DNA from: Thermoanaerobaculia bacterium
GTDB lineage: Bacteria > Acidobacteriota > Thermoanaerobaculia > Gp7-AA8
DNA length: 64,000 nucleotides
Reading direction: 5' to 3'
NCBI GenBank assembly: GCA_963715895.1
Contig: OY970284.1
Location: 4,771,892-4,835,891 of the forward strand
The notes beneath the pieces are model-generated. The model was given only the letters and a program-made list of their open reading frames with translations, did not search any database and was not told the DNA's origin. The position numbers and the translations under genes are program-made. Of this stretch, positions 11,849 through 35,625 are shown piece after piece (the stretch's first letter is position 1; the number at the start of each line of letters is the position of its first letter).

Positions 11849-11850
11849 GT

Positions 11851-11998
11851 AGGTTGCTGGGTTGCTAAGTTGCTGGGTTGCTTGGTCTCGCAGTCTCGCG
11901 GTTTCGCGGTCTCGGGGGTGTTTTGGCCGAATGTCACCCCGCGCGACTTCCAAACCACGAGACCTCGCAACCCAGCAACCCTGCAACGCAGCAACCCA
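11851..11998. repeat. Dispersed GGTTGC/GCAACC inverted-repeat element, copy 1
   Basis: Left arm AGGTTGCTGGGTTGCTAAGTTGCTGGGTTGCTTGGTCTCG and right arm CGAGACCTCGCAACCCAGCAACCCTGCAACGCAGCAACCCAG are reverse complements; arms are built from tandem GTTGCT(G/A)G octamers; about 65-bp GC-rich centre. Confidence 0.65.
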
Positions 11999-12005
11999 GA
12001 AACCG

Positions 12006-14141
12006 TCACCGATAAAACTTCCCATCCTTCTCCGCCAGCTTCCGCAGGGCAGCTGTGGCCAGGAAGCGCTTGCCGTGTTTCTGGGCCAGATCGTCGAGGC
12101 GCGCCAGGATGTACGGCAGGCCGAGCGTGTCGGCGTAACGCAGCAGACCACCGCGGAAGGGCGGGAAGCCGGTGCCCATGATCATGGCCAGATCGAGCTC
12201 GGCGGCCGATGCGACGATCTTCTCGTCGAGGATCATCGCTGCTTCGTTCACCATGGCGAAAATCATCCGCTCCACGACCGCCTGCGCATCGGCGGGATGC
12301 GTCGACTTGATGTTGAGGAGCTTGTACACCGAGGGATCCGGACCCTGGCGCTTGCCGGCTTCGTAGAGGTAGAGACCCTTGCCGTTCTTCTTGCCGAAGC
12401 GTCCGTCATCGTAAAGCGCCGCTACGACGTGCGACGGCTCCATCCGCTCGCCGAACGCGGCGCTGAGGATTTTGGCCACCTTCGCGGCGACGTCGATCCC
12501 CACCTCGTCGAGAAGTGCCATCGGCCCCATCGGCATCCCGAAGTCGACCATCGCTTTGTCGATCGACTCGATGGCGTTCCCCTCTTCGAGGATGAAGCCG
12601 GACTCGTTCATGTAGGGCCCGAGGATGCGGTTGACGACGAAGCCGGGTCCGTCGTTGCAGTAGACGACGGTCTTTCCGAGCTTGCGGGCGAAGTTGGCCA
12701 CCGTGACCATGGCGGCGTCGGAGGTCTTGGCGCCGCGGATGACTTCGACGAGCGGCATGCGGTCGACGGGATTGAAGAAGTGCATGCCGACGACGTTCTG
12801 CGGTCTGGCCGCCTGCGCGGCGATGTCGGTGATGGGGATGGTTGAGGTGTTCGTGGCAAAGACGGCGTTCGGGCCGGCCACCGCCTCGAATTCGCTCAGC
12901 ACCTGGCGTTTGATGTCGATGTTCTCGACGACCGCTTCCACGACGAGGCCGACCCGTTCGAAACCGTTCCAGTCGATGGCCGTCGTAATGCGGGCCAGCT
13001 TGCGCTGCATCTCACCGCGGGTCATGCGCCGCCGGTCGACTTTCTTCTTCCAGATTCGGGCGGCAGCTTTCAATCCGCCAGCGATCGCTTTCCAGTTGAT
13101 GTCGCGCATGCGCACCGCGGCGTCGGTCTTGTCGGCGATGAGCTGCGCGATCCCGCCGCCCATGATCCCCGCCCCAAGCACGCCGGCATCACGGACCTCG
13201 GCGGGCGCCGCCGCGATCCGCTCCTTCTTCGACTCCTCCATCATGAAGAAGAGGCGGATGAGGTTCTGGGCGACGTCGCCGGCCGCGCCGGTGATGAGCG
13301 GAACGACCTCCTCGACTTCCCGCGCCAGTCCGCGCTCGACGCCGTTGGACATGCCGTACTCCATGACGTCGATCGCTTTCAACGGCGCCGGGTAGTGGCC
13401 GTGTGTCGCTTCGAGAACAGACTTGCGCGCTTTGCCGAAAATGACGCGGCGCGCCAGCGGATTCCCCTCGACGTAGAACTTGGTCCGGTCGCTTCCCCTC
13501 CGTTTCGGTTTCAAGGAGAACTGTCTGGCGATGTCGAGCAGGATCGGAGCGGGGACGACTTCATCGACCAGTCCAACGCGTTTGGCCCGCTTGCCGTCGA
13601 GCGTCTTTCCCTGAAGGATGATGTCGAGCGCTCCCGGAAGGCCGATGAGGCGCGGCAGCCTGGTCACGCCGCCCCACGCGGGGAAGATGCCGAGCTTCGT
13701 CTCCGGCAATCCGATCTGCGCCTTCGGGCTGTCGGACATGACGCGGTAGTCACAACTAATGGCCAGCTCGCAGCCGCCGCCGAGCGCGGCGCCGTTGATG
13801 GCGGCAACGGTGACCTGCGGCAGTTTCGAGAAGCGATGAATGGTTTGCTGTCCGAAGCGGGTGTACTCCGCGGCCTGGTCCGCCGAGGTGACCTTGGAGA
13901 ACTCGCTGACGTCGGCGCCGGCGATGAAAATGGACGGTTTGCCTGAAGCGAGGATGATGCGTTTGACCTCGCCGTCGCGCTCGAGCTCATCGACGACGGA
14001 GGCAAACTCCACCATCACCGTCGAGGAGAATTTGTTGACCTTCTCGCCGGGGAGATCGAACCAGACGATGGCCAGGTTGCCGTCGCGCTCGATCCGGAAT
14101 GCGGACGCCGTCCGCGGGGGCGTTTCAACCAGGGTAGTCAT
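12006..14141 (-). CDS. fadB: Fatty-acid oxidation complex alpha subunit (enoyl-CoA hydratase / 3-hydroxyacyl-CoA dehydrogenase)
   Basis: 711 aa; N-terminal crotonase fold, central NAD-binding GxGxxG (GAGIMGGGIA), C-terminal 3HCDH domain; FadB/FadJ architecture. Confidence 0.9.
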   Translation of the reverse strand: MTTLVETPPRTASAFRIERDGNLAIVWFDLPGEKVNKFSSTVMVEFASVVDELERDGEVKRIILASGKPSIFIAGADVSEFSKVTSADQAAEYTRFGQQTIHRFSKLPQVTVAAINGAALGGGCELAISCDYRVMSDSPKAQIGLPETKLGIFPAWGGVTRLPRLIGLPGALDIILQGKTLDGKRAKRVGLVDEVVPAPILLDIARQFSLKPKRRGSDRTKFYVEGNPLARRVIFGKARKSVLEATHGHYPAPLKAIDVMEYGMSNGVERGLAREVEEVVPLITGAAGDVAQNLIRLFFMMEESKKERIAAAPAEVRDAGVLGAGIMGGGIAQLIADKTDAAVRMRDINWKAIAGGLKAAARIWKKKVDRRRMTRGEMQRKLARITTAIDWNGFERVGLVVEAVVENIDIKRQVLSEFEAVAGPNAVFATNTSTIPITDIAAQAARPQNVVGMHFFNPVDRMPLVEVIRGAKTSDAAMVTVANFARKLGKTVVYCNDGPGFVVNRILGPYMNESGFILEEGNAIESIDKAMVDFGMPMGPMALLDEVGIDVAAKVAKILSAAFGERMEPSHVVAALYDDGRFGKKNGKGLYLYEAGKRQGPDPSVYKLLNIKSTHPADAQAVVERMIFAMVNEAAMILDEKIVASAAELDLAMIMGTGFPPFRGGLLRYADTLGLPYILARLDDLAQKHGKRFLATAALRKLAEKDGKFYR

Positions 14142-14144
14142 CGG

Positions 14145-15971
14145 TCAGGCCCGTTTTCCTTCACGTTCATCTTCCAGGTTCTCGTCGATGAAGAGCTGGT
14201 CGATGATCTCTTTGTATTTCTTGTCGATCATCTTCCGCTTCACCTTCAGCGAGGGGGTGATCTCATCGTCGTCGATGGTGAAGTCACGCGGCAGAAGGGC
14301 GAAGCGGCGGATCTTCTCCTGGCGGTCGAGGTTCAGATTGAAGCGGTCGACCTCGGTCTGGTAGATCTGCTGAACCTTCTCGTCGGCGATCAACTCCTGG
14401 CGCGAATTGAACTGCACGCCCATGCCCTTGGCGTCGCGCTCGAGCTTGTCGAAATTGGGGACGAGCAGCGCCACAAGGTATTTGCGCCGGTCGCCGATGA
14501 GAACGGGCGTGCCGATGTACGGGGAGCTCTTCAGCAGTGCTTCCAGCGGCTGCGGCGCGATGTTCTTTCCGTAGGCGTTGATGATGATGTCTTTCTTCCG
14601 GTCGGTGATCTTGAGGAAGCCGTCGGCATCGATCTCGCCGATGTCGCCGGTGTGGAACCATCCGTCGGGATCGATGGCCTGGCGCGTGGCGTCGTCGTTG
14701 TTCCAGTAGCCCTTCATGATGTGCGGGCCGCGGCTGAGGATTTCGCCGTCTTCGGCGATCTTCACCTCCACTCCGGGGATGATGCGGCCGACAGTGCCGA
14801 CCCGGCGCGCCCCCGGCGTGTTGACGGCGATGACCGGGGATGTTTCGGTGAGACCGTAGCCTTCGTAGATATCGAGCCCGGCTCCAATGAAGAACGCGGC
14901 CAGCTCCGCCGACAAAGGAGCGCCGCCCGAGAGAACCATCTTCACACGGCCACCGAGACGGTCGAGGATCTTGCGGAAGACAAGCTTGTCGGCGATGGCC
15001 GATTTGAAGCTGAGTCCGAACGGCATCGGCTTGCCGCTGAGGCGATACGGCAGGCGCTGCTCGGCGATTCCCAGCGCCCACCGGAAGATCTTCTGCTTCG
15101 ATGCCGGCTGGACGGCCACGTTGTCCAGAATGGCCGTGCGCATCTTTTCGAAAAGGCGTGGCACGGCGGCGAAGAGGTGCGGCCGTATCTCGCGCAGGTT
15201 ATCGCTGACTTTCAGGACGCTCTCGGCATAGGCGATGGTGCACCCGCGGTAAAAGTAACAGTAGTCGCCCATCCGCTCGAGGATGTGCGAGAGCGGCAGG
15301 ATGGAGAGGCCGATCATGCCGTGCGCGATCGGCAGCACATTGCAGGTTGCCAGCACGTTGCTGGCGACGTTGCCGTGCGTCAGCATGGCCCCCTTCGGAT
15401 TGCCGGTCGTCCCCGAGGTGTAGACGAGCGTTGCTACGTCGCCGGGCGCCGGCTTGGCGCGCAGATCGTCGAAGCGGGCCCGGGCGGCGGCATCATCGGC
15501 GCTCCGGCCGGTGCCGACGACCGCTTCGAAGCTGAGCACGCCGTCCGGCAGCGTCGCCGGCCGGTCGCAGACGATGACGTTGTGGATGTGCGGGCAGTGG
15601 TCGCGGATGCCGGCCACCTTCTTCATCTGTTCTTCGTTCGAGCAGATGACGGCCACGGCGCCGGAGTCGTTGAGGATGTACTCGATCTGCCAGCCGAGCA
15701 GCGTCGGGTAGACCGGAACGGTGATGGCCGCGCTGGCCAGGATGGCGAAATCGGCCATCGCCCACTCCGGGCGATTCTCCGAGAGGATGGCTACGCGGTC
15801 GCCGGGCTTGAGACCGAGATGGAAAAGGCCGGTTGCGAAGTAGCGAACGGTGTCACGGAACTCGTCGACGCTGGTGTCGACCCAGCGACCGCCGCGTTTG
15901 TACTTGGTCGCCGCCGGCCGCTCCAGCGCGCAGGTGACGGTATAGATGTCGTTGAGAGTCTTGATCTCCAT
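14145..15971 (-). CDS. fadD: Long-chain fatty acid--CoA ligase (AMP-dependent synthetase)
   Basis: 608 aa; AMP-binding signature (YTSGTTGNPKGAMLTHGN), long-chain FACS-type linker; directly downstream of fadB-like gene. Confidence 0.9.
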   Translation of the reverse strand: MEIKTLNDIYTVTCALERPAATKYKRGGRWVDTSVDEFRDTVRYFATGLFHLGLKPGDRVAILSENRPEWAMADFAILASAAITVPVYPTLLGWQIEYILNDSGAVAVICSNEEQMKKVAGIRDHCPHIHNVIVCDRPATLPDGVLSFEAVVGTGRSADDAAARARFDDLRAKPAPGDVATLVYTSGTTGNPKGAMLTHGNVASNVLATCNVLPIAHGMIGLSILPLSHILERMGDYCYFYRGCTIAYAESVLKVSDNLREIRPHLFAAVPRLFEKMRTAILDNVAVQPASKQKIFRWALGIAEQRLPYRLSGKPMPFGLSFKSAIADKLVFRKILDRLGGRVKMVLSGGAPLSAELAAFFIGAGLDIYEGYGLTETSPVIAVNTPGARRVGTVGRIIPGVEVKIAEDGEILSRGPHIMKGYWNNDDATRQAIDPDGWFHTGDIGEIDADGFLKITDRKKDIIINAYGKNIAPQPLEALLKSSPYIGTPVLIGDRRKYLVALLVPNFDKLERDAKGMGVQFNSRQELIADEKVQQIYQTEVDRFNLNLDRQEKIRRFALLPRDFTIDDDEITPSLKVKRKMIDKKYKEIIDQLFIDENLEDEREGKRA

Positions 15972-16013
15972 CCGCGGACCCCCCGATTGTGGAGTAAGCC
16001 CGGATCATAGCTC

Positions 16014-17339
16014 CTAAGCGACTTTGATCCATCGCCACAATTCGGGAATGGTCGGACGCTTTCCGTAGGAGAGGATGCCCACCCGGAAAATCTTGGCCGT
16101 GACGTAGAAGAAAACGGCGATGGTGGCGATGGAAACGCCGATGGAAACGAGAATGTGCCATATCGGCGGCTCGGAGACCAGCGTCCGGACGAACATCGTG
16201 ATCGGTCCGTAGACCGGCGCCATCGAGAGCGCGACGGAGAGAGGCGAGTCAGGGTTGGTGATGATGGCGAACATGATGAACCACGGCAGCATCATCACCA
16301 TCTGGATCGGCGCGACGAGTTGCTGCGCCTCCTTGTCGGTGTTGCAGGCCGCCCCGGCGATGGCGTAGATGCAGACGAAGGTCAGGTAGCCGAGGATGAA
16401 GAAAAGGGCGAAGTAGACAAAGACCATCGGCCGCAGGAACTGGGAGATGTCGAACCCGGCCATCATGGCGCTGGCGGCGCCAAACGCGCCCACCGCGGCG
16501 ATGAGGGTCAGCCAGACGGTGACCTGGGTGAGGCCAACCGCGGCCACGCCAAGGATCTTGCCCGTGAGCAGCTCGCGCGGCGACATCGACGAGATCAGCA
16601 CTTCCACGATGCGCTCGCTCTTCTCCTGCACGATGCCGCGCATCGTCTCCAGTCCATAGATAAAGGAGGGGATGATGAGAAGGGCGGCGAAGATGAAGCC
16701 GATGATGAAATTGGCCTCGCTCCCCTTCTTCTGCTGGCCGCTTCGCGAAAGCTGCACGCTGTCGAATGGAACTTCGCGCGTCAGGGTGTCGACGACATTG
16801 GGGTCGATGCCGCGCCCCGTGAGCCGCTGACGCTGGATGGAACGGTTGGCGACGGAGGCCAGCCGCTCCTGCGTGAAGAGATCGGTTGACGACCGGCTGT
16901 AGAAGGTCATCTTTGCATCGCTGCCGTCGAAGGCGTTGGCAGGAATCACCAGGACGGCGTCGAGTCCGTTGTCCGCCTTCTTGTCGACGTAGAGGCGGTC
17001 GAGATAGGGCTTCGAGGCCGCGGTGAGATCGGACAGCCGGTGCGCATCTTCATAGACGACGTCGATCGACTGGGGCAGTTGTCCGCGGTTGCCGCCGGAG
17101 AGCGCCTTCTTCGGATCGGGGGCGGCCGGCTCGAGTTGGTGTGAAAACGAGCCGCGCAGCTCGCCGGTTCCATCGATGACCGCCACCTTCTTGCCGCCCA
17201 GACCCCGCGCCACCATGAGGCCCGGCACGATGAAAAGCGCGGCCATCAGGACCGGAAAGAAGAGGGTCATGAAGATGAACATCTTCTTCCGGACAGCCTG
17301 GAGATACTCGCGCTTGATGACTGCCAGCATTTTGTTCAT
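16014..17339 (-). CDS. ABC-2 family transporter permease
   Basis: 441 aa; N-terminal TM, large extracytoplasmic loop, then 5 C-terminal TM helices; start overlaps the ATPase gene stop (ATGA). Confidence 0.8.
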   Translation of the reverse strand: MNKMLAVIKREYLQAVRKKMFIFMTLFFPVLMAALFIVPGLMVARGLGGKKVAVIDGTGELRGSFSHQLEPAAPDPKKALSGGNRGQLPQSIDVVYEDAHRLSDLTAASKPYLDRLYVDKKADNGLDAVLVIPANAFDGSDAKMTFYSRSSTDLFTQERLASVANRSIQRQRLTGRGIDPNVVDTLTREVPFDSVQLSRSGQQKKGSEANFIIGFIFAALLIIPSFIYGLETMRGIVQEKSERIVEVLISSMSPRELLTGKILGVAAVGLTQVTVWLTLIAAVGAFGAASAMMAGFDISQFLRPMVFVYFALFFILGYLTFVCIYAIAGAACNTDKEAQQLVAPIQMVMMLPWFIMFAIITNPDSPLSVALSMAPVYGPITMFVRTLVSEPPIWHILVSIGVSIATIAVFFYVTAKIFRVGILSYGKRPTIPELWRWIKVA

Positions 17340-18253
17340 CGAATGGACTCCATCGTCTCGGCGCCGACCTGCTCGATGAAGATTTCCTCGAGAGAGGGCG
17401 AGGCAATCTCGAATCTGCGGATCCGCAACCGCCCCATCGTCGCTTCCAGGATGTGCTGGGGATCGGCGCCTTCCACGAGGCTCAGTTCGGCGCCATTGTT
17501 GCCGATCATGGCGCGCTTGACCTCCGGAAGATTCTCGAGGAAGGCGCCATCGCCTTCGTAGTCGATGTGCAGCGTGTTCTTACCGAAGGAGTTGCGGACC
17601 TCGTCGAGACCTCCGGAGAGGACGATCTTCCCTTTGTGAATGAGGATGATGTCGTCAGCCATCCGCTCGGCTTCCGCCATCATGTGAGTGGAGAGAAGGA
17701 TCGTCCTCCCCTCCTCCTTCAGTTCACGAAGAAGGTCGCGGACGAGAAGCATGTTGACGGGGTCGAGACCCGACTGCGGCTCGTCGAGGATGATGAGGTC
17801 GGGATCGTGCAGAAGGGTACCGATGAGCTGGACTTTCTGCTGGTTGCCCTTCGACAGCTCTTCTACCTTGGCGTCCCGCTTGTCCCACAACTCGAAGCGT
17901 TTGAGCCATCGCTCCGCTGACGGGGCGACGGAACTGCCGCGGCACCCTTTGATCTCGGCGAGAAAGAGAAGGTGCTCCTTCACTTTCATCTGCCGGTAGA
18001 GCCCGCGCTCTTCCGGAAGGTAGCCGATGCGGTCCCGCGCATCCCTTTCGCTGCCGAGCCACTCGATCGATCCGGCATCGGGGAAGAAGACACCGGTAAT
18101 CATCCGGATGGTCGTCGTCTTCCCGGCGCCGTTGCGGCCGAGCAACCCGGTAATCGTGCCGCGCTGGACGGTGAACGAGATTCCGTCCACCGCCCGCACG
18201 GCGCCAAAAGTCTTCACTACGTCCCGCACGGACAAAACGACCGACATACGCAA
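17336..18253 (-). CDS. ABC transporter ATP-binding protein
   Basis: Walker A (GRNGAGKTT), ABC signature (LSKGNQQKV), Walker B (ILDEPQSGLD), H-loop. Confidence 0.9.
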   Translation of the reverse strand: MRMSVVLSVRDVVKTFGAVRAVDGISFTVQRGTITGLLGRNGAGKTTTIRMITGVFFPDAGSIEWLGSERDARDRIGYLPEERGLYRQMKVKEHLLFLAEIKGCRGSSVAPSAERWLKRFELWDKRDAKVEELSKGNQQKVQLIGTLLHDPDLIILDEPQSGLDPVNMLLVRDLLRELKEEGRTILLSTHMMAEAERMADDIILIHKGKIVLSGGLDEVRNSFGKNTLHIDYEGDGAFLENLPEVKRAMIGNNGAELSLVEGADPQHILEATMGRLRIRRFEIASPSLEEIFIEQVGAETMESIR

Positions 18254-18309
18254 TCTCCCTGGAGGCTGAGGTCGGCGTATTGTACGAGAGGGCGGAGAGT
18301 GGGTTCTGA

Positions 18310-18492
18310 TCAGGGATGCGGGAATGACGGATCTTCGGTCACCACCGGCATGAAGATCTTCTTGAGCTTCAGGATGATCCGCTCAATCGGACCTGTCGGC
18401 GAATCGCTCTTCGGCGCAGCAAAAGCTGGAGCGACCGCAAGGAAAACAGTCAGAACGAGAACAGAAATGCGAAGTGCACCACGACGATACAT
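18310..18492 (-). CDS. Possible small secreted peptide
   Basis: 60 aa with clean signal peptide (ISVLVLTVFLAVAPAFAAP); in a 360-bp gap; weak support. Confidence 0.25.
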   Translation of the reverse strand: MYRRGALRISVLVLTVFLAVAPAFAAPKSDSPTGPIERIILKLKKIFMPVVTEDPSFPHP

Positions 18493-18612
18493 ACACCCTC
18501 CTCGGGGGCTCGTATGAGCCGATTAGTTTGAGGGCGCCCTACAAGGAGGAGTGTTTGAGCGAGACTTTTCCCTACCCTAAACTTTGAAGAAACTTGCCCG
18601 ACGCCGGCGGAC

Positions 18613-19956
18613 TCAGCTTGGCAGGCTGGCGAACATCGTGTGCGGGCCGCGGGGCAGGCACTCGAAATACGCACGCGAATCCCGGATATCGGCAAGCGTG
18701 AGCGTGCTGCGGGCAGCAGCCTCCCTGAGCGTCGCCAGGGCCGTCAAAGCTCCTTCCGTGAAGGCCAGATTCGCCGAATGGAAGTAATCCATGGCCACTT
18801 TGCAGGCGTCGGGAATCTCGGCGACCCGATCGAGCGCGAGCAGCGACTCGGCCATGTCGACGGCGACGAGCGCGACGTCGACCTCCATGCCGAGGTCGCG
18901 GAACTCGTCCTGAATCTCCGGGAGGATCTTGAGCGCTTCGACGTGGCGCTGTTGCGCCGCGAGAAGCCGCGCCAGGTTCCAACGCGATTTGACCCGATGC
19001 GAAACCATCTGCTGGCGGTCGAAGGCGTCGATGGCCTTCATCGTGTACTGAATCGATTCATCGAAGGCACCGAGCTCGCGATAGCACAGCGCGGCGTTGT
19101 GCATGGACGAGGCGCGCCAACGCGGGTCGACACGGTGGTCGTCGGCCAGAGCCGTGTGGATGGCCACCGCCTCCTGATAGCGGCGGGCGTGGTACAGGAT
19201 GATCGCTTCGGCCGATCGGGCCGCGGCATGACGGCCGAAATCGTCGTACTCCTCGAATACCCGTCCGGCATCGTGAGCGATGAACAGAGCCTCGTCACGC
19301 CGCTCCAGCGTCCGGTACACCAGAACGCGCACGAGATTGAGACGTGCCCGGTCGAATTCCGATCCGATGGTCGGCTCGAGAGCATCGGCCGCGGCAAGCG
19401 CCCCCATGGCCTCCGTATACGCTCCGGTGCACATGAGCGCATACGCCCGCTCCAGAAGAGCGGCGAAGCGGAGACGCGCCACGAATGTGGCCGGGTACTC
19501 GGCGATCAGCAGACCGTCGGCGATCTCGACCGCCAGGCGGGTGATTTCGACGGCATCGGCCGGCATCATGTCGATGGCCCGGTCCGTGGCCGCGATCAAC
19601 TTCCTGACCACGCCCGCCGTCCGCCACTCGGGATGCTGCGCCAGCCGAGGCGCCCAGGTGTCGCGCGATCCGGCCAGAAGCTGCCTGGCGTAGAGGTCCG
19701 CGGCGGCGTCTTCGCTTTTCATCGCTTTCTGGACACCGCGCAGGAAGGCCAGGCTCTCCGCGCGAGGGGTATTCGAAAACGACTGCGGCTCCCACACATC
19801 GCCGTGTTTCAGGAGCGTGGCCGTGCCGCGGAGGGAATCGAGTGTCCGCTTGCAGAGCGAACAGCCGGCGAGATGCTTGTCCCGCGCCGCGGAATCGATC
19901 GGCTCGCCGAGGAACCCGGCAAGCACTTCCTCATCGTAGTGCTGTTCGATCATCAT
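18613..19956 (-). CDS. Anti-sigma factor with zf-HC2 zinc finger and TPR-like helical domain
   Basis: N-terminal H-x3-C-x2-C motif (HLAGCSLCKR) typical of zf-HC2 anti-sigma factors; long all-alpha, TPR-like remainder; start overlaps ECF sigma stop (ATGA). Confidence 0.65.
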   Translation of the reverse strand: MMIEQHYDEEVLAGFLGEPIDSAARDKHLAGCSLCKRTLDSLRGTATLLKHGDVWEPQSFSNTPRAESLAFLRGVQKAMKSEDAAADLYARQLLAGSRDTWAPRLAQHPEWRTAGVVRKLIAATDRAIDMMPADAVEITRLAVEIADGLLIAEYPATFVARLRFAALLERAYALMCTGAYTEAMGALAAADALEPTIGSEFDRARLNLVRVLVYRTLERRDEALFIAHDAGRVFEEYDDFGRHAAARSAEAIILYHARRYQEAVAIHTALADDHRVDPRWRASSMHNAALCYRELGAFDESIQYTMKAIDAFDRQQMVSHRVKSRWNLARLLAAQQRHVEALKILPEIQDEFRDLGMEVDVALVAVDMAESLLALDRVAEIPDACKVAMDYFHSANLAFTEGALTALATLREAAARSTLTLADIRDSRAYFECLPRGPHTMFASLPS

Positions 19957-20525
19957 CGCTTCACCGCCGTAATACTGAGATAGATCTCCCGAACGCGTTT
20001 GAGGCAGTTATGGATCAATTTCTCCGCGTAGCGCGACGTCGTGTCGAGCGAGACCGCAACATCGTTCGCGGAGCGGCCCTCGTAGTAGTGGAGGTAAAGC
20101 GTCTCGCGGCAGCGCGGCTGCAGATAACCCAGCGCCTGCTGCATCGTGATGATCATGGCCATCTTTTCGGCGATACCGCTCGACGAAGGATCTGTGTGCT
20201 CGTCGAAATCCTCGGGCAACCCTTCGGTGCGTCCCTGGCCGCGCCAGTAGTGGCGGCTGGCGTTGCACATCGCCGCCACCAGCCAGGCCCGGATGTTCTC
20301 GACCCTGGTCGTCGTGGTCATGAACGAGAGGAAGACTTCCTGGATCAGCGACTCCGCTTCCGATTCAGGGATACGGAACTTACGGCAGCCGACGTGAAGC
20401 AGCAGCGGCCGGTGCCGTACATAGAGCTCGCCGATGTCCTCCGGCTGAGGCTCCTCGAACGGCCCGAGCGGCGGCAGAGCGGCATCCACGTCCGTGACCG
20501 GAAGTGTGGCCGGGGAACCTGTCAT
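19953..20525 (-). CDS. ECF (sigma-70 family) RNA polymerase sigma factor
   Basis: 190 aa from ATG at 20525; sigma-70 region 2 (ELYVRHRPLLLHVGCRKFRIPESEAESLIQEVFLSF) and region 4 HTH (YYEGRSANDVAVSLDTTSRYAEKLIHNCLKRV). Confidence 0.8.
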   Translation of the reverse strand: MTGSPATLPVTDVDAALPPLGPFEEPQPEDIGELYVRHRPLLLHVGCRKFRIPESEAESLIQEVFLSFMTTTTRVENIRAWLVAAMCNASRHYWRGQGRTEGLPEDFDEHTDPSSSGIAEKMAMIITMQQALGYLQPRCRETLYLHYYEGRSANDVAVSLDTTSRYAEKLIHNCLKRVREIYLSITAVKR

Positions 20526-20829
20526 CGTTTCCAACACATTCGGATCGAGCACGACCGCTTCCCTCTTCCTCTCTCTCGGAAGTTGCGAGTCGATAATTAT
20601 GGACGCGTTCTCACGAAGATACCATGAAACGTGAAAAGAGCGACATTCCTTCGGTACGTCAGTTTTCTTGAACCCGGACCCGTCTGGGTAATGCCAAGCA
20701 TACCCGATGTAGTAGCGGAAAGGTGTCGGTAATCTGTTAGACGGCCAGACAGCCCGTTTTTCCCTCGAAGTTCGGGATCTGATGCTATCCTCCGCCGTCG
20801 CAAAATGCCGCCCGACAGAAGGTAAGTCG

Positions 20830-22239
20830 ATGAAATCAGAACAGATCGCCACGAGCGTCGGTCAGATTTGGGACTCGTCCATCGTCCCGACACTCGAGCG
20901 ATACATCCGCATCCCCAGTCAATCTCCCCTCTTCGATCCGGATTGGAAGCAGAACGGTCATATAGACCAGGCGGTTGCGCTTGCGCGCGCCTGGGTCGAG
21001 GAACAGCAGATCGAGGGGCTTCGGATCGAGACATGCGAGATCGAGGGCCGCACGCCGCTGATCTTCATCGAAGTCGACGGCGACGATTCATCCACCGTAC
21101 TGATGTACGGGCATCTCGACAAGCAACCGGCCATGGTTGGTTGGGATGCCGGCCTCGGCCCCTGGACGCCGGTGCTTCGCGACGGCAGGCTCTTCGGACG
21201 CGGCGGCGCCGATGACGGGTACGCCATCTTCGCCGCGGTCTCCGCCATCCGCGCCGTCAAGGAGCAGAACGCGCCGCACTCACGCATCGTCGTCATGATC
21301 GAATGCTGTGAAGAGAGTGGCTCGGTCGATCTCCAGGCATACATCGACCTGCTTTCCGAGAGGATCGGCACACCGCGACTGGTCATCTGTCTCGACAGTG
21401 GCTGCGGCAACTACGATCAACTCTGGATGACGACGTCGCTCCGCGGCTCGATCGTCGGCAATCTCACGGTCGAAGTGCTGAGCGAGGGGGTCCACTCCGG
21501 CGACGCCAGCGGCATCGTCCCCTCGAGCTTCCGCATCATCCGCATCCTGCTGGACCGGCTCGAAGAGGCAAGCACCGGCCGGATCATCCCGGAGTGGCTG
21601 CACGCCGAGGTCCCGCCGGATCGCATGGCCGAGGTCCGCGAAACCGCCCGCATCCTCGGCGACGAGATCTACAACAAGTTCCCGTTTCTGCCAGGCATGC
21701 GTCCGATGACCGACGATCCGGTCGAACAGTTGCTCAACCGGACCTGGCGCCCGATGCTGTCCTACACCGGTCAGGCCGGCCTCCCCGATCTCGTGCAGGG
21801 CGGCAACGTCCTCCGTCCGAAGACATCGATCAAGCTCTCGCTCCGCGTTCCGCCGACGCTCGAAGCCTCGAGTATCGACCGGAAACTGAAGGAGCTGCTG
21901 GAAAGCGACCCCCCCTACGGCGCCCGCGTCGAATTTGAACCGGAAAAGGGTGCCGGCGGTTGGGAAGTCCCGAAGGTCGATGCCTGGCTGGAGAAATCGA
22001 TCGACTCCGCCTCGAAAACCTACTTCGGCAAACCCGCCACCACCTGGGGCGAAGGCGGCTCGATCCCGTTCATGGGGATGCTCGGCCAGCGCTTCCCGAA
22101 CGCGCAGTTCCTCATCACCGGCGTCCTCGGACCACACAGCAACGCCCACGGACCGAACGAGTTCCTCGACATCCAGACCGGGAAGAATGTGACCGCGTGT
22201 GTGGCGCAGGTGCTTGCGGACGAGAGAAGCTCGGCGTAA
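20830..22239 (+). CDS. M20-family metallopeptidase (dipeptidase/deacylase-like)
   Basis: ATG at 20830 preceded by AAGGTAAG; metal-binding blocks HLDKQP...GRGGADDGY...CEESGS and dimerisation domain. Confidence 0.85.
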   Translation: MKSEQIATSVGQIWDSSIVPTLERYIRIPSQSPLFDPDWKQNGHIDQAVALARAWVEEQQIEGLRIETCEIEGRTPLIFIEVDGDDSSTVLMYGHLDKQPAMVGWDAGLGPWTPVLRDGRLFGRGGADDGYAIFAAVSAIRAVKEQNAPHSRIVVMIECCEESGSVDLQAYIDLLSERIGTPRLVICLDSGCGNYDQLWMTTSLRGSIVGNLTVEVLSEGVHSGDASGIVPSSFRIIRILLDRLEEASTGRIIPEWLHAEVPPDRMAEVRETARILGDEIYNKFPFLPGMRPMTDDPVEQLLNRTWRPMLSYTGQAGLPDLVQGGNVLRPKTSIKLSLRVPPTLEASSIDRKLKELLESDPPYGARVEFEPEKGAGGWEVPKVDAWLEKSIDSASKTYFGKPATTWGEGGSIPFMGMLGQRFPNAQFLITGVLGPHSNAHGPNEFLDIQTGKNVTACVAQVLADERSSA

Positions 22240-22241
22240 CC

Positions 22242-22316
22242 GGTTGCTAGGTTGCAAAGTCTCGCCGTCTCGACCCCGAGACCTTGCAACTCAGCAACCC
22301 AGCAACCTCGCAACCC
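22242..22316. repeat. Dispersed GGTTGC/GCAACC inverted-repeat element, copy 2
   Basis: GGTTGCTAGGTTGCAAAGTCTCG ... CGAGACCTTGCAACTCAGCAACCCAGCAACCTCGCAACCC; fills the whole gap between convergent stops (22239 and 22316). Confidence 0.65.
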
Positions 22317-23206
22317 TACCCGTGCCCGCCCGCGTACTTCTTCTCCCCTGCTTCGATCCGGATCGGCAACCGGTTCTGCGGCGGAGGCAACGGGCAGGTC
22401 GCATACGGCGTGAACGCGCACGGCGGGTTGTAGGCTTTGTTGAAGTCGACGATCGTCTTCCCGCTGGCGTCGGGCGGATGGGCGTAGAGGTAGCGCGCCG
22501 CACCGTAGGTCTCTTTCCCGCTCGTAGCGTCTTTGAAGATGATGAAGTAGTCGGTCTCCCCCTGCTCGAGAATCGGATCGATGCGGAACTCCTGGCCCTG
22601 CAGCGTGAAGACGAGCGCGCCCGGCGAGACCTCGTCGCTGGTCATGCCGAGGACGTTCGTGATCGGGATCTTTTTGGGAGGGTTGTACGGCTCGAACCGC
22701 GCTTCGACGCGTGATCCTGCATCGACCGGAAAGTACTCCAGTCCCAGGAAGTGCTTGCGCGCCTCGGCGTCCGTATCGCGCACGCGAATCCCGAAGCGCG
22801 GTCCGTGCGTGGCGTCTTCGCGCCGGATGGCGACGAACGACAGCGTCCCCGTGCGGACGACGGTCGGCTTCGGCTCCGTATCGTTGCTCAACGCAACCGC
22901 CGCGGTCACCGGCTTTCCCTCGATCGTCAACGACGGGTTCGGCTGGAGGTTCACCTTTCCGTCCTGGAGAACGAACTGCGCCTGAACGGGTGGTTTCGCA
23001 GGAAGGGAGACATCATTGTTCCCGTCGCTGAGCCAGTAGAGACCGGCCAGAGTCAGCCAGCCGTCCGGCGCTTTCAGCCGTTCAGCACGGTGCGCACGCC
23101 ATGCCTCGACATCTTTTTGCAGCGATGAGCCGTCTATCGATCCGGCGGGAGGTTCATAGCGGCAGGCGGCGAACAGGAGGAGGAGGATGGCGACGGAACG
23201 TTTCAT
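22316..23206 (-). CDS. DUF1684-domain protein with signal peptide
   Basis: 296 aa from ATG at about 23206 (MKRSVAILLLLFAACRYEPPAG...); conserved C-terminal block ...YNPPCAFTPYATCPLPPPQNRLPIRIEAGEKKY typical of DUF1684. Confidence 0.7.
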   Translation of the reverse strand: MKRSVAILLLLFAACRYEPPAGSIDGSSLQKDVEAWRAHRAERLKAPDGWLTLAGLYWLSDGNNDVSLPAKPPVQAQFVLQDGKVNLQPNPSLTIEGKPVTAAVALSNDTEPKPTVVRTGTLSFVAIRREDATHGPRFGIRVRDTDAEARKHFLGLEYFPVDAGSRVEARFEPYNPPKKIPITNVLGMTSDEVSPGALVFTLQGQEFRIDPILEQGETDYFIIFKDATSGKETYGAARYLYAHPPDASGKTIVDFNKAYNPPCAFTPYATCPLPPPQNRLPIRIEAGEKKYAGGHG

Positions 23207-23266
23207 CGGTCGGATAGGATACTCAAACCTTGGTTTCCAAATGTCGCAGAGCCGTGTCCAATCAGG

Positions 23267-23881
23267 GTGAGCAATGTTGCACCCTTCCCCGCCCGGCTGC
23301 GGGAGCTTGATGCGGTGATCCCCACTTTTAATGAGGAGCACCGTCTTCTTGCAGCCATTCGCGGCGGCGATCGCAGCGCCGCGGAGGAGCTCGTCGATCG
23401 AACCTACTCCTCGGTCTTCGCATCGCTCTTCCGCCTTTGCGGCGACCGCGACCTGGCCGCCGATCTGACACAGGAAACGTACCGGAAGGCGTGGGAAGCA
23501 CTTCCCGGATTCGACGGCCGGTCGCAGTTTTTCACCTGGCTCTACCGCATTGGCTACACGACGTTTCTCAATCACATCCGCCGGCCGCGGCTGATGAAGT
23601 CGCTCGACGACGAGAACGCGCCGGAGATGCCGGACGACGCACCCGCCGCCGACGAGGTGCTGAGCAACGCCGAGGAGGGCGAACACCTTCGTGCAGCCGT
23701 GCTTTTACTCCCCGAAGATCTGCGTTTTACAGTGACCGCCCATTTCTGGGGCGGTCTGGCAGTCAAAGAGATCGCGGCCATCGAAGAGATCACTACCGTC
23801 GCGATCCGAAAACGGCTGCACAAGGCGTTCTCCCTGCTGGAAGAAGCCCTCGGCGGGAACGTTGAGGAAGAAAGACAATGA
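23267..23881 (+). CDS. ECF (sigma-70 family) RNA polymerase sigma factor
   Basis: 204 aa; region 2 (ELVDRTYSSVFASLFRLCGDRDLAADLTQETYRKAWEAL...FFTWLYRIGYT) and region 4 (FWGGLAVKEIAAIEEITTVAIRKRLHKAFSLL). Confidence 0.85.
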   Translation: MSNVAPFPARLRELDAVIPTFNEEHRLLAAIRGGDRSAAEELVDRTYSSVFASLFRLCGDRDLAADLTQETYRKAWEALPGFDGRSQFFTWLYRIGYTTFLNHIRRPRLMKSLDDENAPEMPDDAPAADEVLSNAEEGEHLRAAVLLLPEDLRFTVTAHFWGGLAVKEIAAIEEITTVAIRKRLHKAFSLLEEALGGNVEEERQ

Positions 23882-25122
23882 CACGGAACCGCAAAGCTGA
23901 CCTGCAGCGGAAGCTGACCATGGCGCCGGTGGCGACACCTCCCGCCGGGCTGGCCGACCGCATCAAGAGCGAAATCCCTTCCCATCTGGGATTCGAATCC
24001 GAACGAACGCAATCGCGGAAGTCCGCGATGTTCAATCTCCGCATCGCCGCATCGATCATCCTGCTGGTCTCATCGCTCTACCTCGTGCTGCATCTTCTCT
24101 CGCCGACCGATGCGAACCTGCGATCGATGCCGAACCTGGCCGACAAGACTGCTGCCACGACGCCCCGCGCGGCGGTAGCGCTCCCGAACTCACCCCCGGA
24201 ACCGGGAAGCGCCCGCGAGCAGCCTCGCACTGATCTTCCGGTGATGCCGAGCACGCCGCCGCCGACAAGTGTGGCCGCCATTCCGAACCCCCGGATCGCG
24301 GAAGCGAAGCGGAGAGAAGTGGTCGACGGCTTGTCGACCCCCAACGCCTCCTACACCAGCTCCGTTGAGAACGAAGCGCCGGCCATCAAGCCCCAACCAA
24401 TCGTCGCGGAGGCGGCGCCGGCCGCCGCCGCCACGCCTCCGCCTCCCCCTTCCCTCGCTCTGGATCAGGCAGCGCCGGCGGGTGCCTACGCCGAGGGGCG
24501 CTTTGCACCGGAACGCTCGGTCGCCAAGGCTGAGGCTCCTCAGGAGCGCCGCGCCGCGCGCGACGACGCTCCGGTCAGGAACTTCGTGGCCATCCAGGAG
24601 GCAATTTCCCACGGCGCCACGCTGCGTCATCTCGACACCTCGGCGATCGTGCAGCATTTCGCAGCGCCCGAGCGCCCTCCGGCCGATCTACGGGTCGAGC
24701 TCGAAGCGTCCGCGGCACCTCTCAATGCCTCGAAGTGGCTGCTGCGCGTATCCGTGGATGGTCCCGCCACGAACACCTCGATCGATCTCGAGTTCGGCGA
24801 CGCGGTCGCCGCGCATCACGCGCTGACAGGCTCGCCCGCTGCCAACGAGACGGCGTTGTACGAGATCGAATTCAAACCGAGCGCAACGCTCGACCAGACC
24901 ATCGCCACCGTCCGGGCTGGTAAAGCCGAGGGCATCGTCCGCGTAACCGATCTCCGTCGCTGGAACGCCGCCTCGACGAGGATGAAACGCGCCTCGCTGG
25001 CGGCAACGTGGGCGCGCACGCCGCAGTCACACACGCAATCCGAGGCGATCGTAGCCAAAGCGCGCGAGGCGCACATCGACGACCTGGCGGACATCGTTGA
25101 GCGCGTCGAGAGGAATCAGTGA
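23878..25122 (+). CDS. Putative membrane-anchored anti-sigma factor (Pro/Ala-rich)
   Basis: ATGA overlap with sigma gene; short cytoplasmic N-terminus, one TM (IAASIILLVSSLYLVLHLL), then long Pro/Ala-rich low-complexity extracytoplasmic region and a structured C-terminal domain; no family recognised. Confidence 0.5.
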   Translation: MTRNRKADLQRKLTMAPVATPPAGLADRIKSEIPSHLGFESERTQSRKSAMFNLRIAASIILLVSSLYLVLHLLSPTDANLRSMPNLADKTAATTPRAAVALPNSPPEPGSAREQPRTDLPVMPSTPPPTSVAAIPNPRIAEAKRREVVDGLSTPNASYTSSVENEAPAIKPQPIVAEAAPAAAATPPPPPSLALDQAAPAGAYAEGRFAPERSVAKAEAPQERRAARDDAPVRNFVAIQEAISHGATLRHLDTSAIVQHFAAPERPPADLRVELEASAAPLNASKWLLRVSVDGPATNTSIDLEFGDAVAAHHALTGSPAANETALYEIEFKPSATLDQTIATVRAGKAEGIVRVTDLRRWNAASTRMKRASLAATWARTPQSHTQSEAIVAKAREAHIDDLADIVERVERNQ

Positions 25123-25123
25123 G

Positions 25124-25198
25124 GGGTTGCTGAGTTGCTTGGTTGCTTGGTTCGGCGGCGGTACTCAGCAACCTTGCAACCGAGCAACCCCGCAACCC
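25124..25198. repeat. Dispersed GGTTGC/GCAACC inverted-repeat element, copy 3
   Basis: GGGTTGCTGAGTTGCTTGGTTGCTTGGTTCG ... CTCAGCAACCTTGCAACCGAGCAACCCCGCAACCC; again fills a convergent intergenic gap (stops at 25122 and 25200). Confidence 0.65.
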
Positions 25199-25199
25199 T

Positions 25200-25454
25200 T
25201 CACCTCGGCCGTCCCCCACCAAAGTTACGTACCGACTGAAAGTGCACGTCGAAGTAACGCGCCGCGGCGCGGACCGCGCGGGAAACGGTCCAGGCGTCTT
25301 TCGATGGGATCCGCTCCAGCGCCAGGCGCATGTTTTCGGGCAGCTTGGCCCGGCAACTGCGGCAGAGGGCGGTGCCGATGGTCTTGTTGAGGTCGCAACG
25401 GGGACAACGCGGCGTCCTGGCGAGCCCGGAGACCTGCTCCTTCGTCAATGTCAT
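25200..25454 (-). CDS. Small zinc-ribbon protein (CxxC...CxxC)
   Basis: 84 aa from ATG at 25454 (MTLTKEQVSGLARTPRCPRCDLNKTIGTALCRSCRAKLPENMRLALERI...); purine-rich stretch upstream; the 3' end runs into repeat copy 3. Confidence 0.4.
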   Translation of the reverse strand: MTLTKEQVSGLARTPRCPRCDLNKTIGTALCRSCRAKLPENMRLALERIPSKDAWTVSRAVRAAARYFDVHFQSVRNFGGGRPR

Positions 25455-25579
25455 CGTATCCCTCTCTCTTTCTCCGGGCAGGTTATTGTTACATGAATAC
25501 GAGCCCGCCACACCATCAGTTACTGGCAGCGGTTCCCGGTGCATTAGAATCCGCGCCGATTTCCGAGGAGGACATCGGC

Positions 25580-35618: not shown

Positions 35619-35625
35619 GTTTCAT

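Follow-up and report, generated by a model that had tools for sequence, protein, structure and literature searches.

Introduction

Foldback (FB) transposons of Drosophila have long inverted terminal repeats, built from short tandem subrepeats, on either side of a variable centre; they are eukaryotic, kilobase-sized and transposase-associated. Among bacterial repeats, 7-bp STRR hairpins occur in intergenic regions, among them the one between hupS and hupL, where transcript stabilisation or translational coupling has been proposed for them (PMC2670836). Long simple-sequence repeats (LSSR) with units of 5-11 nt have been put down to polymerase slippage (Mrazek 2007, as relayed in PMC4679880), and TAACTGA heptamer repeats are found in Beggiatoaceae, Cyanobacteria and Bacteroidetes (PMC4679880). 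For REP, BIME and REPIN elements, roles in mRNA stabilisation and termination have been proposed (PMC3733652, PMC3116915).

Here we describe GGTTGC hairpins in a 64-kb stretch of DNA (the window) from the 6.64-Mb genome of a soil acidobacterium of the class Thermoanaerobaculia. We lean towards reading these elements as STRR/LSSR-type simple-sequence hairpins that arise by slippage and are transcribed, as stem-loops, at the boundaries of cistrons.

Results

Structure of the GGTTGC elements

Three hairpins with arms of tandem GGTTGCNN / NNGCAACC octamers were found where a first-pass annotation of the window had put them, and pattern matches, TRF and folds all support them. A one-armed array beyond those three brings the GGTTGC family to four loci in 64 kb. 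The copies (hairpins without assigned strand) and their neighbours are as follows.

11852-12004, no strand, copy 1, composite hairpin between two minus-strand genes
12006-14141, minus strand, fadB-like gene upstream of copy 1
10091-11848, minus strand, gene downstream of copy 1, ATG at 11846-11848
22242-22316, no strand, copy 2, two GGTTGC units, inner GTCTCG...CGAGAC stem, four GCAAC units
20782-22239, plus strand, M20 peptidase gene left of copy 2, convergent
stop at 22316, minus strand, DUF1684 gene (~295 aa) right of copy 2, convergent
25123-25198, no strand, copy 3, three GGTTGC units and one degenerate unit, 20-nt loop, four GCAACC units
23878-25122, plus strand, gene left of copy 3, following an ECF sigma factor gene
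25200-25604, minus strand, small conserved ORF right of copy 3
50134-50165, plus strand, one-armed array of four CAGCAACC-type units, in frame within the multihaem cytochrome gene 50065-51420

The repeat unit is 8 nt long, with GTTGC as its constant core and three bases that vary. Allowing one mismatch, the two-unit pattern GGTTGCNNGKTTGC has 22 matches in the window, where shuffles predict 0.72, and nearly all of these matches fall in the three hairpins and the fourth site; TRF reports a period-8 array in each arm, with 3.5-4.8 copies per arm. By both measures the arrays are longer than chance, with a unit in the 5-11-nt range of LSSR and STRR. The core is almost invariant within arrays and the 3-nt spacers are variable (1.25-1.9 versus 0.3-0.7 bits), a contrast that is partly built in, the core having been the search criterion for most copies. 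Spacers are only 48-65% complementary between arms. An invariant core with variable spacers argues against recent duplication alone, which would leave all eight positions equally alike.

Long stems are predicted on both strands of the three hairpins (-34 to -93 kcal/mol; z = -5 to -10 versus dinucleotide shuffles), and these are GC-rich stem-loops of the kind looked for in intrinsic terminators. Each arm is a direct tandem array unable to fold on itself, and unit numbers often differ between arms (2 versus 4, 3 versus 4, and 9 versus 2 in L006). Across the copies of the window and its relatives no full-length consensus was found; only the unit is common, and both loops and inner parts vary. 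All three frames are open in the C/A-rich arms, which read (L)ATQQ(P/L)SNPAT and extend spurious ORFs through copy 1, as the first-pass annotation had recognised from (L)ATQQPSN-like peptides.

Copy 1 has an outer 5' arm of four GGTTGCNN units (11852-11886), an inner arm of about four GGTCTCGC-type units (11884-11914), a small central loop hairpin (GGGGGTG...CACCCC), and mirror arms in which GAGAC-type units precede five GCAAC-type units (11967-12004), four with exact cores and the outermost a GAAAC variant. It folds at -86 kcal/mol on the plus and -93 kcal/mol on the minus strand (z -8.4 and -10.1). The elements had been described as arms around a short variable core; the arms stand, but the core of copies 1 and 2 proved to be a second octamer family (GGTCTCGC / GCGAGACC).

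That each copy fills its gap without spacer holds almost to the base. Copy 1 begins 1 nt past the TGA at 12006-12008 and stops 3 nt short of the ATG at 11846-11848, a start confirmed by a database protein (585 aa, 100% identical) and by many homologues 581-593 aa long. Copy 2 takes up all 76 nt from the TAA at 22237-22239 to the stop at 22316-22318, and the stem of copy 3 contains the stop codons of both convergent neighbours. Convergent gaps, between two gene ends, had been thought the rule. This is true of copies 2 and 3, but copy 1 is co-directional, running from a stop codon to the next gene's start with both neighbours on the minus strand, and relatives' copies lie in all three gap types.

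The fourth copy is a coding array

The array at 50134-50165 encodes AQQPSNPATQQPQ, directly C-terminal of the signal peptide. Across 17 cytochrome orthologues this linker is graded from none (AAQQ followed directly by GHYEG) to eight units, and the L119 orthologue has four perfect GCAACCCA units. The reading frame is kept; the 8-nt unit restores it only once per three units (24 nt, QQPSNPAT). The graded series shows that the array was expanded stepwise, in place, from an ancestral CAGCAACC seed encoding A-Q-Q-P (GCGCAGCAACCG).

Turnover and distribution

Copy 1 is present in relatives at 90% protein identity or more and absent at 82% and 76%. Its orthologues in L140, L141 and L144 differ in unit number (outer units: four in the window, L141 and L140, five in L144; inner units: between about four and one across the same set), and L142 and L143 have an empty site. 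Copies 2 and 3 are missing in relatives at 82-95% protein identity, where the gaps measure 5-20 nt. At the position of copy 2, an AGGCAGA array takes its place in L113, 46 nt of unrelated sequence lie in L117, and the empty gaps of L114 and L115 measure 12 and 15 nt; at that of copy 3, L113 (a 95% relative) has 20 nt without a hairpin, L115 and L117 have 5-7 nt, and L114 has an unrelated GTGTAG...CTACAC palindrome. Overall, relatives at 76-95% protein identity have empty orthologous sites, one gap can hold different unit families in sister lineages, and copy number changes by whole units, as in LSSR and STRR. No target-site duplication is visible between filled and empty sites, where the flanks are stop and start codons and ancestral spacers are unrecognisable.

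The expectation that this is a dispersed inverted-repeat family with further copies was confirmed by a genome-collection scan of 185,579 species, which returned at least 112 loci. Among the 112 matches listed, at least 30 are acidobacterial (at least 21 labelled Thermoanaerobaculia and at least 9 other Acidobacteriota), with further copies in L126 and L141; the family is enriched in Thermoanaerobaculia and other Acidobacteriota. The same unit recurs at many mainly intergenic loci in this genome and related genomes, as LSSR and STRR units do. No copies were found in viral contigs.

At the acidobacterial loci among the matches listed, crude gene calls place the family in 24 of 168 co-directional, 4 of 33 convergent and 6 of 41 divergent gaps, so that, as far as such calls allow, hairpin rates in relatives are similar in all three types. 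Two divergent cases were read directly in the sequence: L099 4446-4680, between the starts of an MBL-fold gene and murA, and L034 5046-5122, between the start of a minus-strand gene and that of another gene, which by our own reading is presumably a PLP-dependent Cys/Met-metabolism gene. At least 10 of about 16 co-directional acidobacterial cases have a flush fit, with the 5' arm beginning a few nt past the stop and the 3' arm ending no more than 10 nt from the start codon. A nearby hairpin-free operon junction (gap 42432-42454) has an ordinary GGAGGGAG Shine-Dalgarno sequence. One-armed arrays also exist, G/T-rich after stops and C/A-rich before starts.

Other unit families share the architecture

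The GGTTGC family is one among many unit families of the same build (GAATGTT, GCGGAGAC, GGTCTCGC and others), found in the window and in 530 kb of relatives chosen without regard to repeats. Three further hairpins built in this way from other units lie in the window, one of them a REPIN-like palindrome.

35619-35696, no strand, hairpin of GCGGAGAC units with a 31-bp near-perfect stem (-69 kcal/mol, z -13.9), between the stop of gene 34803-35618 and a mazE-like gene (Pfam) at 35731
38846-38943, no strand, GAATGTT heptamer hairpin with ~5.6 units per arm, between the stop of gene 36461-38839 and the start of gene 38963-39796
44295-44466, no strand, REPIN-like palindrome, each arm GTAG plus the hairpin GGTCGGACT-CTCT-AGTCCGACC

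The GAATGTT hairpin is kept at the orthologous gap in 9 relatives, with the 5' arm identical in 8 of the 9, whereas the 3' arm and loop drift and the 4-fold sites of the adjacent gene are only 0.59-0.83 identical. In L132, three whole units are gone from each arm, and a second, non-orthologous copy in L099 shares an odd GAATGTTC unit. Arm identity across lineages with near-saturated synonymous sites and the shared odd unit suggest sequence-specific constraint and copying between loci; they point to a hairpin that is not dynamic and thus count against slippage.

In the REPIN-like palindrome an outer 15-mer, ACGTAGGTCGGACTC, is tandemly duplicated (four copies left, two right); the element lacks this duplication in L105 and L124 (in L124 each arm has a single 15-mer), and L122 has a rearranged version. 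The GGTTGC copies differ: GTAG stands ahead of the array just at 11849-11852 and, on the opposite strand, where copy 2 has its TAG stop; copy 3 and most relatives' copies lack it. A Pfam scan found no Y1/RAYT transposase among the ~50 genes of the window.

Handedness and nesting

All acidobacterial hairpins among the matches listed (23 of 23) read 5'-GGTTGC arm...GCAACC arm-3'; two hairpins of reverse handedness come from other phyla. Across tandem-armed hairpins of many unit families, the 5' arm is the G-rich one in 12 of 13 clusters, versus 21 against 22 for ordinary hairpins. Families are nested in both orders: in copies 1 and 2 the GGTTGC units enclose GGTCTCGC, and in L099 and L020 they are the inner family.

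Discussion

Comparisons of orthologues and of copies show that arrays gain and lose whole units in each arm independently, that over a genus-level time span they arise at a gene boundary, vanish from it or give way to others, and that the GGTTGC hairpins are not copies of one master element. The motor would be slipped-strand mispairing in replication or repair on a small seed stem, with arm complementarity maintained by selection or by templating between arms. Transcribed within mRNAs, the elements would form long imperfect stems, predicted as 5-6-bp helices from the cores separated by partly mismatched spacers and lying flush from a stop codon to the next start or stop. Between convergent genes such a stem might block exonucleases as a 3' barrier or terminate transcription with no U-tract. 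Between co-directional genes its base would hold the upstream stop close to the downstream AUG, a closeness that would permit translational coupling; alternatively, the stem may be a processing site. Some copies may persist only because, at such positions, a hairpin is topologically neutral and so tolerated. An mRNA stem-loop role, which the first-pass annotation had also raised, remains plausible.

Slippage from random local seeds does not explain the recurrence of the core at ~23 independent hairpins with the same handedness in 23 of 23, and common-element descent or selection on the core may be involved; the handedness of tandem-armed hairpins in general is without explanation under slippage. 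We regard it as unlikely that these hairpins are not passive slippage products and instead are the footprint of an undescribed sequence-specific system of Thermoanaerobaculia and some other phyla. Possible forms are foldback-like mobile DNA with arrays of a 5-nt protein-binding core, or arrays put in place and maintained for a use at the RNA level, for instance intercistronic processing, translational coupling or Rho avoidance. If true, such a system would account for the strict handedness (G-rich arm 5' on both strands), the copying of odd unit variants to unrelated loci, the nesting of families and the perfect conservation of some arms, none of which slippage alone explains.

It is doubtful that the elements belong to an unrecognised mobile or templated system, either foldback-type DNA, whose terminal inverted repeats would be arrays of a short protein-binding core and which would insert at gene boundaries and into hairpin loops, or a repeat-adding enzyme acting at breaks. 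The acidobacterial handedness, the G-rich 5' arms of the wider set, the odd variant shared by non-orthologous GAATGTT hairpins, nesting in both orders, two unit families in one 12-15-nt gap of sister lineages, and the invariant core beside a variable spacer would all fit. However, filled and empty sites reveal no target-site duplication, the window encodes no candidate enzyme, viral contigs lack copies, the coding array documents expansion in place, and the two hairpins from other phyla have the opposite handedness.

Bidirectional termination as the main function, by U-tract-less (I-shaped) terminators, seems improbable to us. Very stable GC-rich stems directly after stop codons would suit it, as would the two of three window copies between convergent genes, and the different hairpin families in one convergent gap of sister lineages could reflect selection for some hairpin. 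The bidirectional terminator of the first-pass annotation, in its canonical form, finds no support, as none of the three stems is followed by a T-tract; a scan of 11000-26000 found no terminator-like site at the three elements, whose sequence has no T run. Copy 1 and most relatives' copies are co-directional and flush to the next start, where termination would silence the downstream gene, and close relatives do with empty gaps of 5-15 nt. The similar hairpin rates across gap orientations weaken the terminator reading by that annotation's own criterion, copies placed at random relative to gene ends, and the two checked hairpins that fill divergent gaps cannot be terminators or 3' barriers there.

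We see only a slim chance that the arrays are primarily binding sites for a DNA- or RNA-binding protein recognising GUUGC/GTTGC at 8-nt spacing ((GUUGCNNN)n), the hairpin being secondary. The information contrast between core and spacer, the one-armed arrays and the GAATGTT 5' arm conserved beside a drifting 3' arm and loop agree with this, and TAACTGA repeats upstream of start codons have drawn a comparable proposal (PMC4679880). Against it, core conservation is partly circular, the sites are missing in close relatives, we identified no candidate protein, and an 8-bp spacing would put successive sites on different faces of the DNA helix.

Mobile palindromes of REP/BIME or REPIN type that depend for their copying on a RAYT (Y1 HUH transposase) gene in another part of the genome are scarcely credible as an explanation: the elements are extragenic, palindromic and dispersed, differ in presence at orthologous sites and have the fixed handedness expected of descent from one element, and the GTAG-tagged REPIN-like elements of these genomes (44295-44466, L105, several families in L114 and L121-L136) make a RAYT somewhere in the genome probable, but the GGTTGC copies lack a full-length consensus and a hairpin inside each arm, have GTAG before the array only where a TAG stop or chance provides it, consist of variable-number tandem arrays, include a coding array that grew in place, and have no Y1 transposase among the ~50 window genes.

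Comparison with known systems

Like intrinsic (Rho-independent) terminators, the GGTTGC elements are GC-rich stem-loops directly 3' of stop codons; unlike them, they lack a U-tract, have far longer stems, and often lie inside operons or in divergent gaps. With FB elements they share inverted arms of tandem subrepeats around a variable centre, but neither a transposase among the window genes nor a target-site duplication between filled and empty sites was seen. REP, BIME and REPIN elements are likewise extragenic palindromes of high copy number that differ in presence between strains. The REP/BIME likeness drawn by the first-pass annotation did not hold up: REPs are 20-40-nt consensus units, themselves imperfect palindromes, with a GTAG/CGTC tag and a cognate RAYT whose gene REPs typically flank, whereas the GGTTGC copies yielded no such consensus, no consistent tag and no RAYT among the ~50 window genes, and the GTAG-bearing REPIN-like element in the same window looks unlike them.

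LSSR and TAACTGA repeats, so far as PMC4679880 relays them, likewise have tandem units of 5-11 nt, an attribution to slippage and a sporadic phylogenetic spread. TAACTGA arrays also lie a few nt from start codons in regions without a Shine-Dalgarno sequence and occur within genes only in frame-preserving numbers. They differ in unit and in arrangement: 169 TAACTGA sets are direct and one is indirect (PMC4679880), whereas the inverted, hairpin arrangement dominates here.

The GGTTGC hairpins resemble the little-understood STRR hairpins of cyanobacteria more than they do REP elements or classical terminators. Both are intergenic, dispersed and built of short tandem units (7 nt in STRR, 8 nt here) that pair with an inverted array, and both lie between co-transcribed genes and near 3' ends, where stabilisation, termination and coupling have only been proposed (PMC2670836). 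What sets the present elements apart is their acidobacterial host, the octamer with its constant 5-nt core and variable 3-nt spacer, the strict handedness, the nested two-family arrangements and the in-frame expansions in secreted-protein genes, features not described in PMC2670836 or PMC4679880. The GGTTGC family, an octamer of Thermoanaerobaculia, is thus an analogue and not a member of STRR1-3, the heptamers of heterocystous cyanobacteria.

GGTTGC hairpins at three gene boundaries

The inverted-repeat family that the first-pass annotation reported from the window is real, yet ordinary in kind. Its three copies lie where they had been placed. Their arms are period-8 tandem arrays (TRF), built of GGTTGCNN in the 5' arm and of the complementary NNGCAACC in the 3' arm. 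When one mismatch was allowed, a two-unit pattern had 22 matches in the window, where dinucleotide shuffles predict 0.72. On folding, long stems form on both strands in all three copies, and GGTCTCGC arrays are nested within copies 1 and 2. Because the number of units per arm varies and the loops are unrelated, a pattern scan was preferred to a covariance model; no loop or full-length consensus common to the copies was found, and no Rfam family matched anywhere in the window at the gathering threshold.

Coordinates, folding free energies and z scores (shuffles) of the three copies
Copy 1, 11852-12004: -86 and -93 kcal/mol; z -8.4 and -10.1
Copy 2, 22242-22316: -34 and -42 kcal/mol; z -7.0 and -5.0
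Copy 3, 25123-25198: -53 and -47 kcal/mol; z -7.0 and -6.1

The proposal that all copies fill convergent gaps fails for copy 1, whose flanking genes are co-directional: on one side a fadB-like gene (12006-14141, minus strand; ECH and 3HCDH domains) has its stop 1 nt away, and on the other the ATG (11846-11848) of the next minus-strand gene is 3 nt away. This ATG is backed by a 100% identical database protein of 585 aa and by dozens of homologues of 581 to 593 aa. Copy 2 makes up the whole 76-nt gap between an M20 peptidase gene and a DUF1684 gene. The longest DUF1684 ORF (456 aa, 22316-23686) is over-extended: every homologue has about 295 aa, and the surplus part overlaps with a plus-strand gene for an ECF sigma factor (23267-23881). 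Copy 3 lies between a 414-aa gene, which follows the sigma factor gene, and a small ORF with conserved synteny, and its stem takes in both flanking stop codons. The remark that the repeats inflate spurious ORFs was sound: every reading frame stays open through the C/A-rich arms, and copy 1 is traversed by two ORFs of more than 660 aa each. For annotation, this means that C/A-rich arms lengthen false ORFs and obscure true start codons. Assemblies, too, break within such arrays; in a 95% relative (locus L113, 6887-6923), the contig ends in an AGGCAGA tandem array exactly at the copy 2 gap; short-read assemblies are broken by these repeats.

Growth and turnover by whole units

Whole-unit slippage has probably shaped most of the GGTTGC hairpins' structure. 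In syntenic loci of other genomes, collected via homologues of three window proteins, copies 2 and 3 are young. In place of copy 2, the 95% relative carries the AGGCAGA-unit array between the DUF1684 and M20 genes, and this gap measures 12 nt in L114 and 15 nt in L115 and holds 46 unrelated nt in L117. The copy 3 gap is 20 nt long and free of a hairpin in the 95% relative, 7 nt in L115, and 5 nt in L117, and in L114 it contains an unrelated GTGTAG...CTACAC palindrome. Copy 1 is older. Three relatives, at 96, 95, and 90% identity, have it; in a fourth, at 91%, the gap at this site is 156 nt long (gap length only), whereas relatives at 82% (33 nt) and 76% identity have an empty site. Orthologous versions of copy 1 are separated by whole-unit differences. 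An additional GGTTGC hairpin stands 3' of the stop of the gene downstream of copy 1 (10091-11848, minus strand) in one compared locus (L141) and is missing from two others (L140 and L144) and from the window. The elements are a rapid source of variation precisely at gene boundaries.

The growth mechanism is revealed directly by a fourth array, overlooked in the first pass and recovered by pattern search.

50134-50165: four CAGCAACC-type units without an inverted partner, in frame in a multihaem cytochrome gene (50065-51420), encoding AQQPSNPATQQPQ right after the signal peptide

Over 17 cytochrome orthologues, the linker between the signal peptide and a conserved PGHYEGVASC motif forms a graded series.

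Cytochrome linker in representative orthologous loci
L130 and L135: none (AAQQ directly followed by GHYEG)
L132: QQPVPGHY
L119: four perfect GCAACCCA units
L128: two arrays, eight units in total

One CAGCAACC unit is already present in the ancestral A-Q-Q-P codons (GCGCAGCAACCG), so that the coding array grew in place by tandem duplication; three units of 8 nt add up to 24 nt (QQPSNPAT), which keeps the frame. Among in-gene arrays of acidobacterial loci, mostly 150 nt or less from the start, GCAAC is on the sense strand in 10 of 13, and the three others sit in probably spurious ORFs. In-frame 24-nt expansions of this kind generate low-complexity linkers (QQPSNPAT) in secreted proteins.

Short repeats also occur in other genes of the window. 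The signal-peptide region of the gene at 44467-46098 contains GCAACC seeds (AFAQPATAP; 44500-44528), and its orthologues (L119, about 14129-14226; L120; L122) have GGTCTCGC-type units either inside the first 19 codons or immediately 5' of them. The coding region of purH (AICARFT/IMPCHase) contains 3.7 copies of a heptamer, CAACCGA (33378-33403), which is also present in a 94% relative (L119, 1782-1809) and looks like another in-frame simple-sequence expansion.

A wider class of tandem-armed hairpins

The GGTTGC family belongs to a larger class of hairpins built alike, of which the window has further examples.

35619-35696: near-perfect GCGGAGAC hairpin, directly upstream of a mazEF pair
38846-38943: GAATGTT hairpin, of like architecture with a different unit
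44295-44466: REPIN-like palindrome, GTAG-tagged, with a tandemly duplicated outer 15-mer

In 530 kb of Thermoanaerobaculia loci chosen without regard to repeats (the window, L113-L136, and L140-L143), TRF and an inverted-repeat search returned dozens of distinct 7- to 9-nt units and 13 tandem-armed hairpin clusters. When 185,579 species genomes were scanned for four GTTGC cores set 8 nt apart, at least 112 loci matched; among the matches listed, 21 were from Thermoanaerobaculia and 9 from other Acidobacteriota, other elements of the window recurred in three loci (L020, L099, and L105), the non-acidobacterial matches were mostly plain 8-bp microsatellites, and hairpins of like design were few (Haliscomenobacter, Prevotella, Anaerolineae, and Gemmatimonadaceae). 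These shared elements and the names carried by homologues of window proteins assign the window to Thermoanaerobaculia. The hairpin pattern had no match in viral contigs.

Repeats of other kinds also occur in the window. At 34401-34626, flanked by purH and a DUF5694 gene, lie 10.7 copies (94% identity) of a 21-mer (CCAGAGGCAGTTAACAGCCTT), each unit partly self-complementary. In a divergent gap, a 21/42-nt tandem repeat (57342-57431) extends over the start region of a gene for an M50 peptidase. MazF/PemK-type toxins are encoded twice in the window, once together with a MazE antitoxin, and a PIN-domain protein once (1528-1791, 35731-36316, and 51722-52132).

Handedness, core, and constraint

Slippage alone does not explain the handedness of the hairpins, the contrast between core and spacer, the constraint on the GAATGTT hairpin, or the nesting of arrays. 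All 23 acidobacterial hairpins (22 independent sites) run from a 5' GTTGC array to a 3' GCAAC array, with none reversed; in other phyla the ratio was 8 to 2 among the matches listed. In the 530-kb set, G exceeded C in the 5' arm of 12 of the 13 tandem-armed clusters, representing about ten unit families, against a near-even split (21 versus 22) for 43 clusters of ordinary, non-tandem hairpins. The rule is general for tandem-armed hairpins, with exceptions such as the CAGAAAC arms in two of the compared loci (L006 and L032), and it holds for one-armed arrays as well. In every gap type the order on the sense strand is stop, G/U-rich arm, C/A-rich arm, start. Avoidance of Rho and the openness of the C/A-rich strand to translation in its frames were considered as explanations of the handedness rule. 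Given the handedness, transitions in the C/A-rich arm yield G-U pairs in transcripts of either strand, and the balance of G-U pairs and A-C mismatches is therefore not decisive on selection at the RNA level.

The handedness also prompted the idea of telomerase-like repeat addition at breaks, which is unneeded since the coding array expanded in place, and which fails on the mirrored order of two unit families. The GCTGGGTT motif in the arrays resembles E. coli Chi, and the arms have the orientation that would be active if the palindrome broke at its center. This reading was rejected because, in the co-oriented genes at 28 to 64 kb, the sense strand is poor in GTTGC and enriched in GCAAC, the opposite of a Chi-like skew; the motif is also missing from other unit families.

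Within units, the GTTGC core is near-invariant and the 3-nt spacer variable, with only 48 to 65% complementarity between the spacers of the two arms. This contrast is suggestive only, the core having been the search key; L126, detected without the core as key, also combines a near-invariant core with a variable spacer. When the orthologous gap of the GAATGTT hairpin was compared with the window (L119, L126, L128-L130, L132-L134, and L136), a 39-nt 5' arm, including one odd GAATGTTC unit, was identical in eight of nine orthologues; 4-fold sites of the adjacent gene were 0.59 to 0.83 identical across these lineages, and the loop was scrambled. A second GAATGTT hairpin with the odd GAATGTTC unit occupies a nonorthologous site, the murA-folP gap of L099 (5995-6215). 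These comparisons suggest that the GAATGTT hairpin is a constrained element that has been copied between loci. GGTTGC and GGTCTCGC arrays are nested in both orders at unrelated loci. The system is moderately interesting for its strict handedness, its constant core and variable spacer, its creation of protein linkers, and the evidence that some arrays are either copied between loci or strongly constrained.

Terminators and REP elements

The GGTTGC elements are probably neither classical bidirectional terminators nor a REP/BIME family, both of which had been proposed. None of the three stems is followed by a T-tract, and a scan for canonical terminators was negative there. By our GC3-based gene calls, with some cases checked by hand, the family is present in 24 of 168 gaps between co-directional genes, in 4 of 33 convergent gaps, and in 6 of 41 divergent gaps. 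Two divergent cases were checked in the sequence itself, L099 4446-4680, between the starts of an MBL-fold gene and murA, and L034 5046-5122, between the start of a minus-strand gene and one that, in our reading, resembles the start of a PLP-dependent Cys/Met-metabolism gene. As to REP/BIME, the copies share neither loop, full-length consensus, nor a consistent GTAG tag, and no Y1/RAYT or other transposase is encoded among the roughly 50 genes of the window. True GTAG-tagged REP-like families do occur in corresponding gaps of relatives, and they differ in appearance from the GGTTGC elements.

The palindrome at 44295-44466 has canonical REPIN-like anatomy, an inverted pair of GTAG plus a GGTCGGACT-CTCT-AGTCCGACC hairpin, also found in L105 (1230-1470), L122, and L124; in the window, tandem duplication has brought its outer 15-mer to four copies on the left and two on the right. 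This anatomy implies that the genomes probably encode a RAYT-type system separate from the GGTTGC family. An inverted pair of about 70-nt elements (CTTCTCCCCCGCGGTTTTTTGCGGGGGAGAAGGTGCCGACAGGCGGATGAGGGGG) lies at 39929-40112 and in the corresponding gap of L020 and L119; in L121 and L126 the pair sits elsewhere, in the gap after the orthologue of 46152-46454, where it displaces an overlapping TGATG stop/start. The pair behaves like a mobile palindromic element.

Possible role in operons and comparison with cyanobacterial repeats

In at least 10 of about 16 co-directional cases, the 5' arm starts a few nucleotides after the stop, and the 3' arm ends 10 nt or less from the start codon. With arms flush against stop and start, a free Shine-Dalgarno sequence cannot be accommodated; a neighboring junction free of a hairpin has a clear GGAGGGAG. 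We infer from this geometry that a ribosome terminating at the stem base would open the outermost unit, freeing the sequence beside the AUG. If a function in coupling, processing, or Rho evasion were shown, the hairpins would point to a common operon organization in bacteria without clear ribosome-binding sites or classical terminators.

The GGTTGC hairpins are an acidobacterial counterpart of the short tandem repeat (STRR) hairpins of cyanobacteria and of long simple-sequence repeats (LSSRs), turning over rapidly at gene boundaries. Translational coupling has been raised for STRR hairpins (PMC2670836), and TAACTGA repeats are located just upstream of start codons (PMC4679880); the predicted opening of the stem base matches both the coupling idea and the position of the TAACTGA repeats. 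On the role of STRR-type hairpins, the acidobacterial elements supply a large set for comparison and two leads that can be tested, namely, strict handedness and the placement of a stop and the next start at one stem base.
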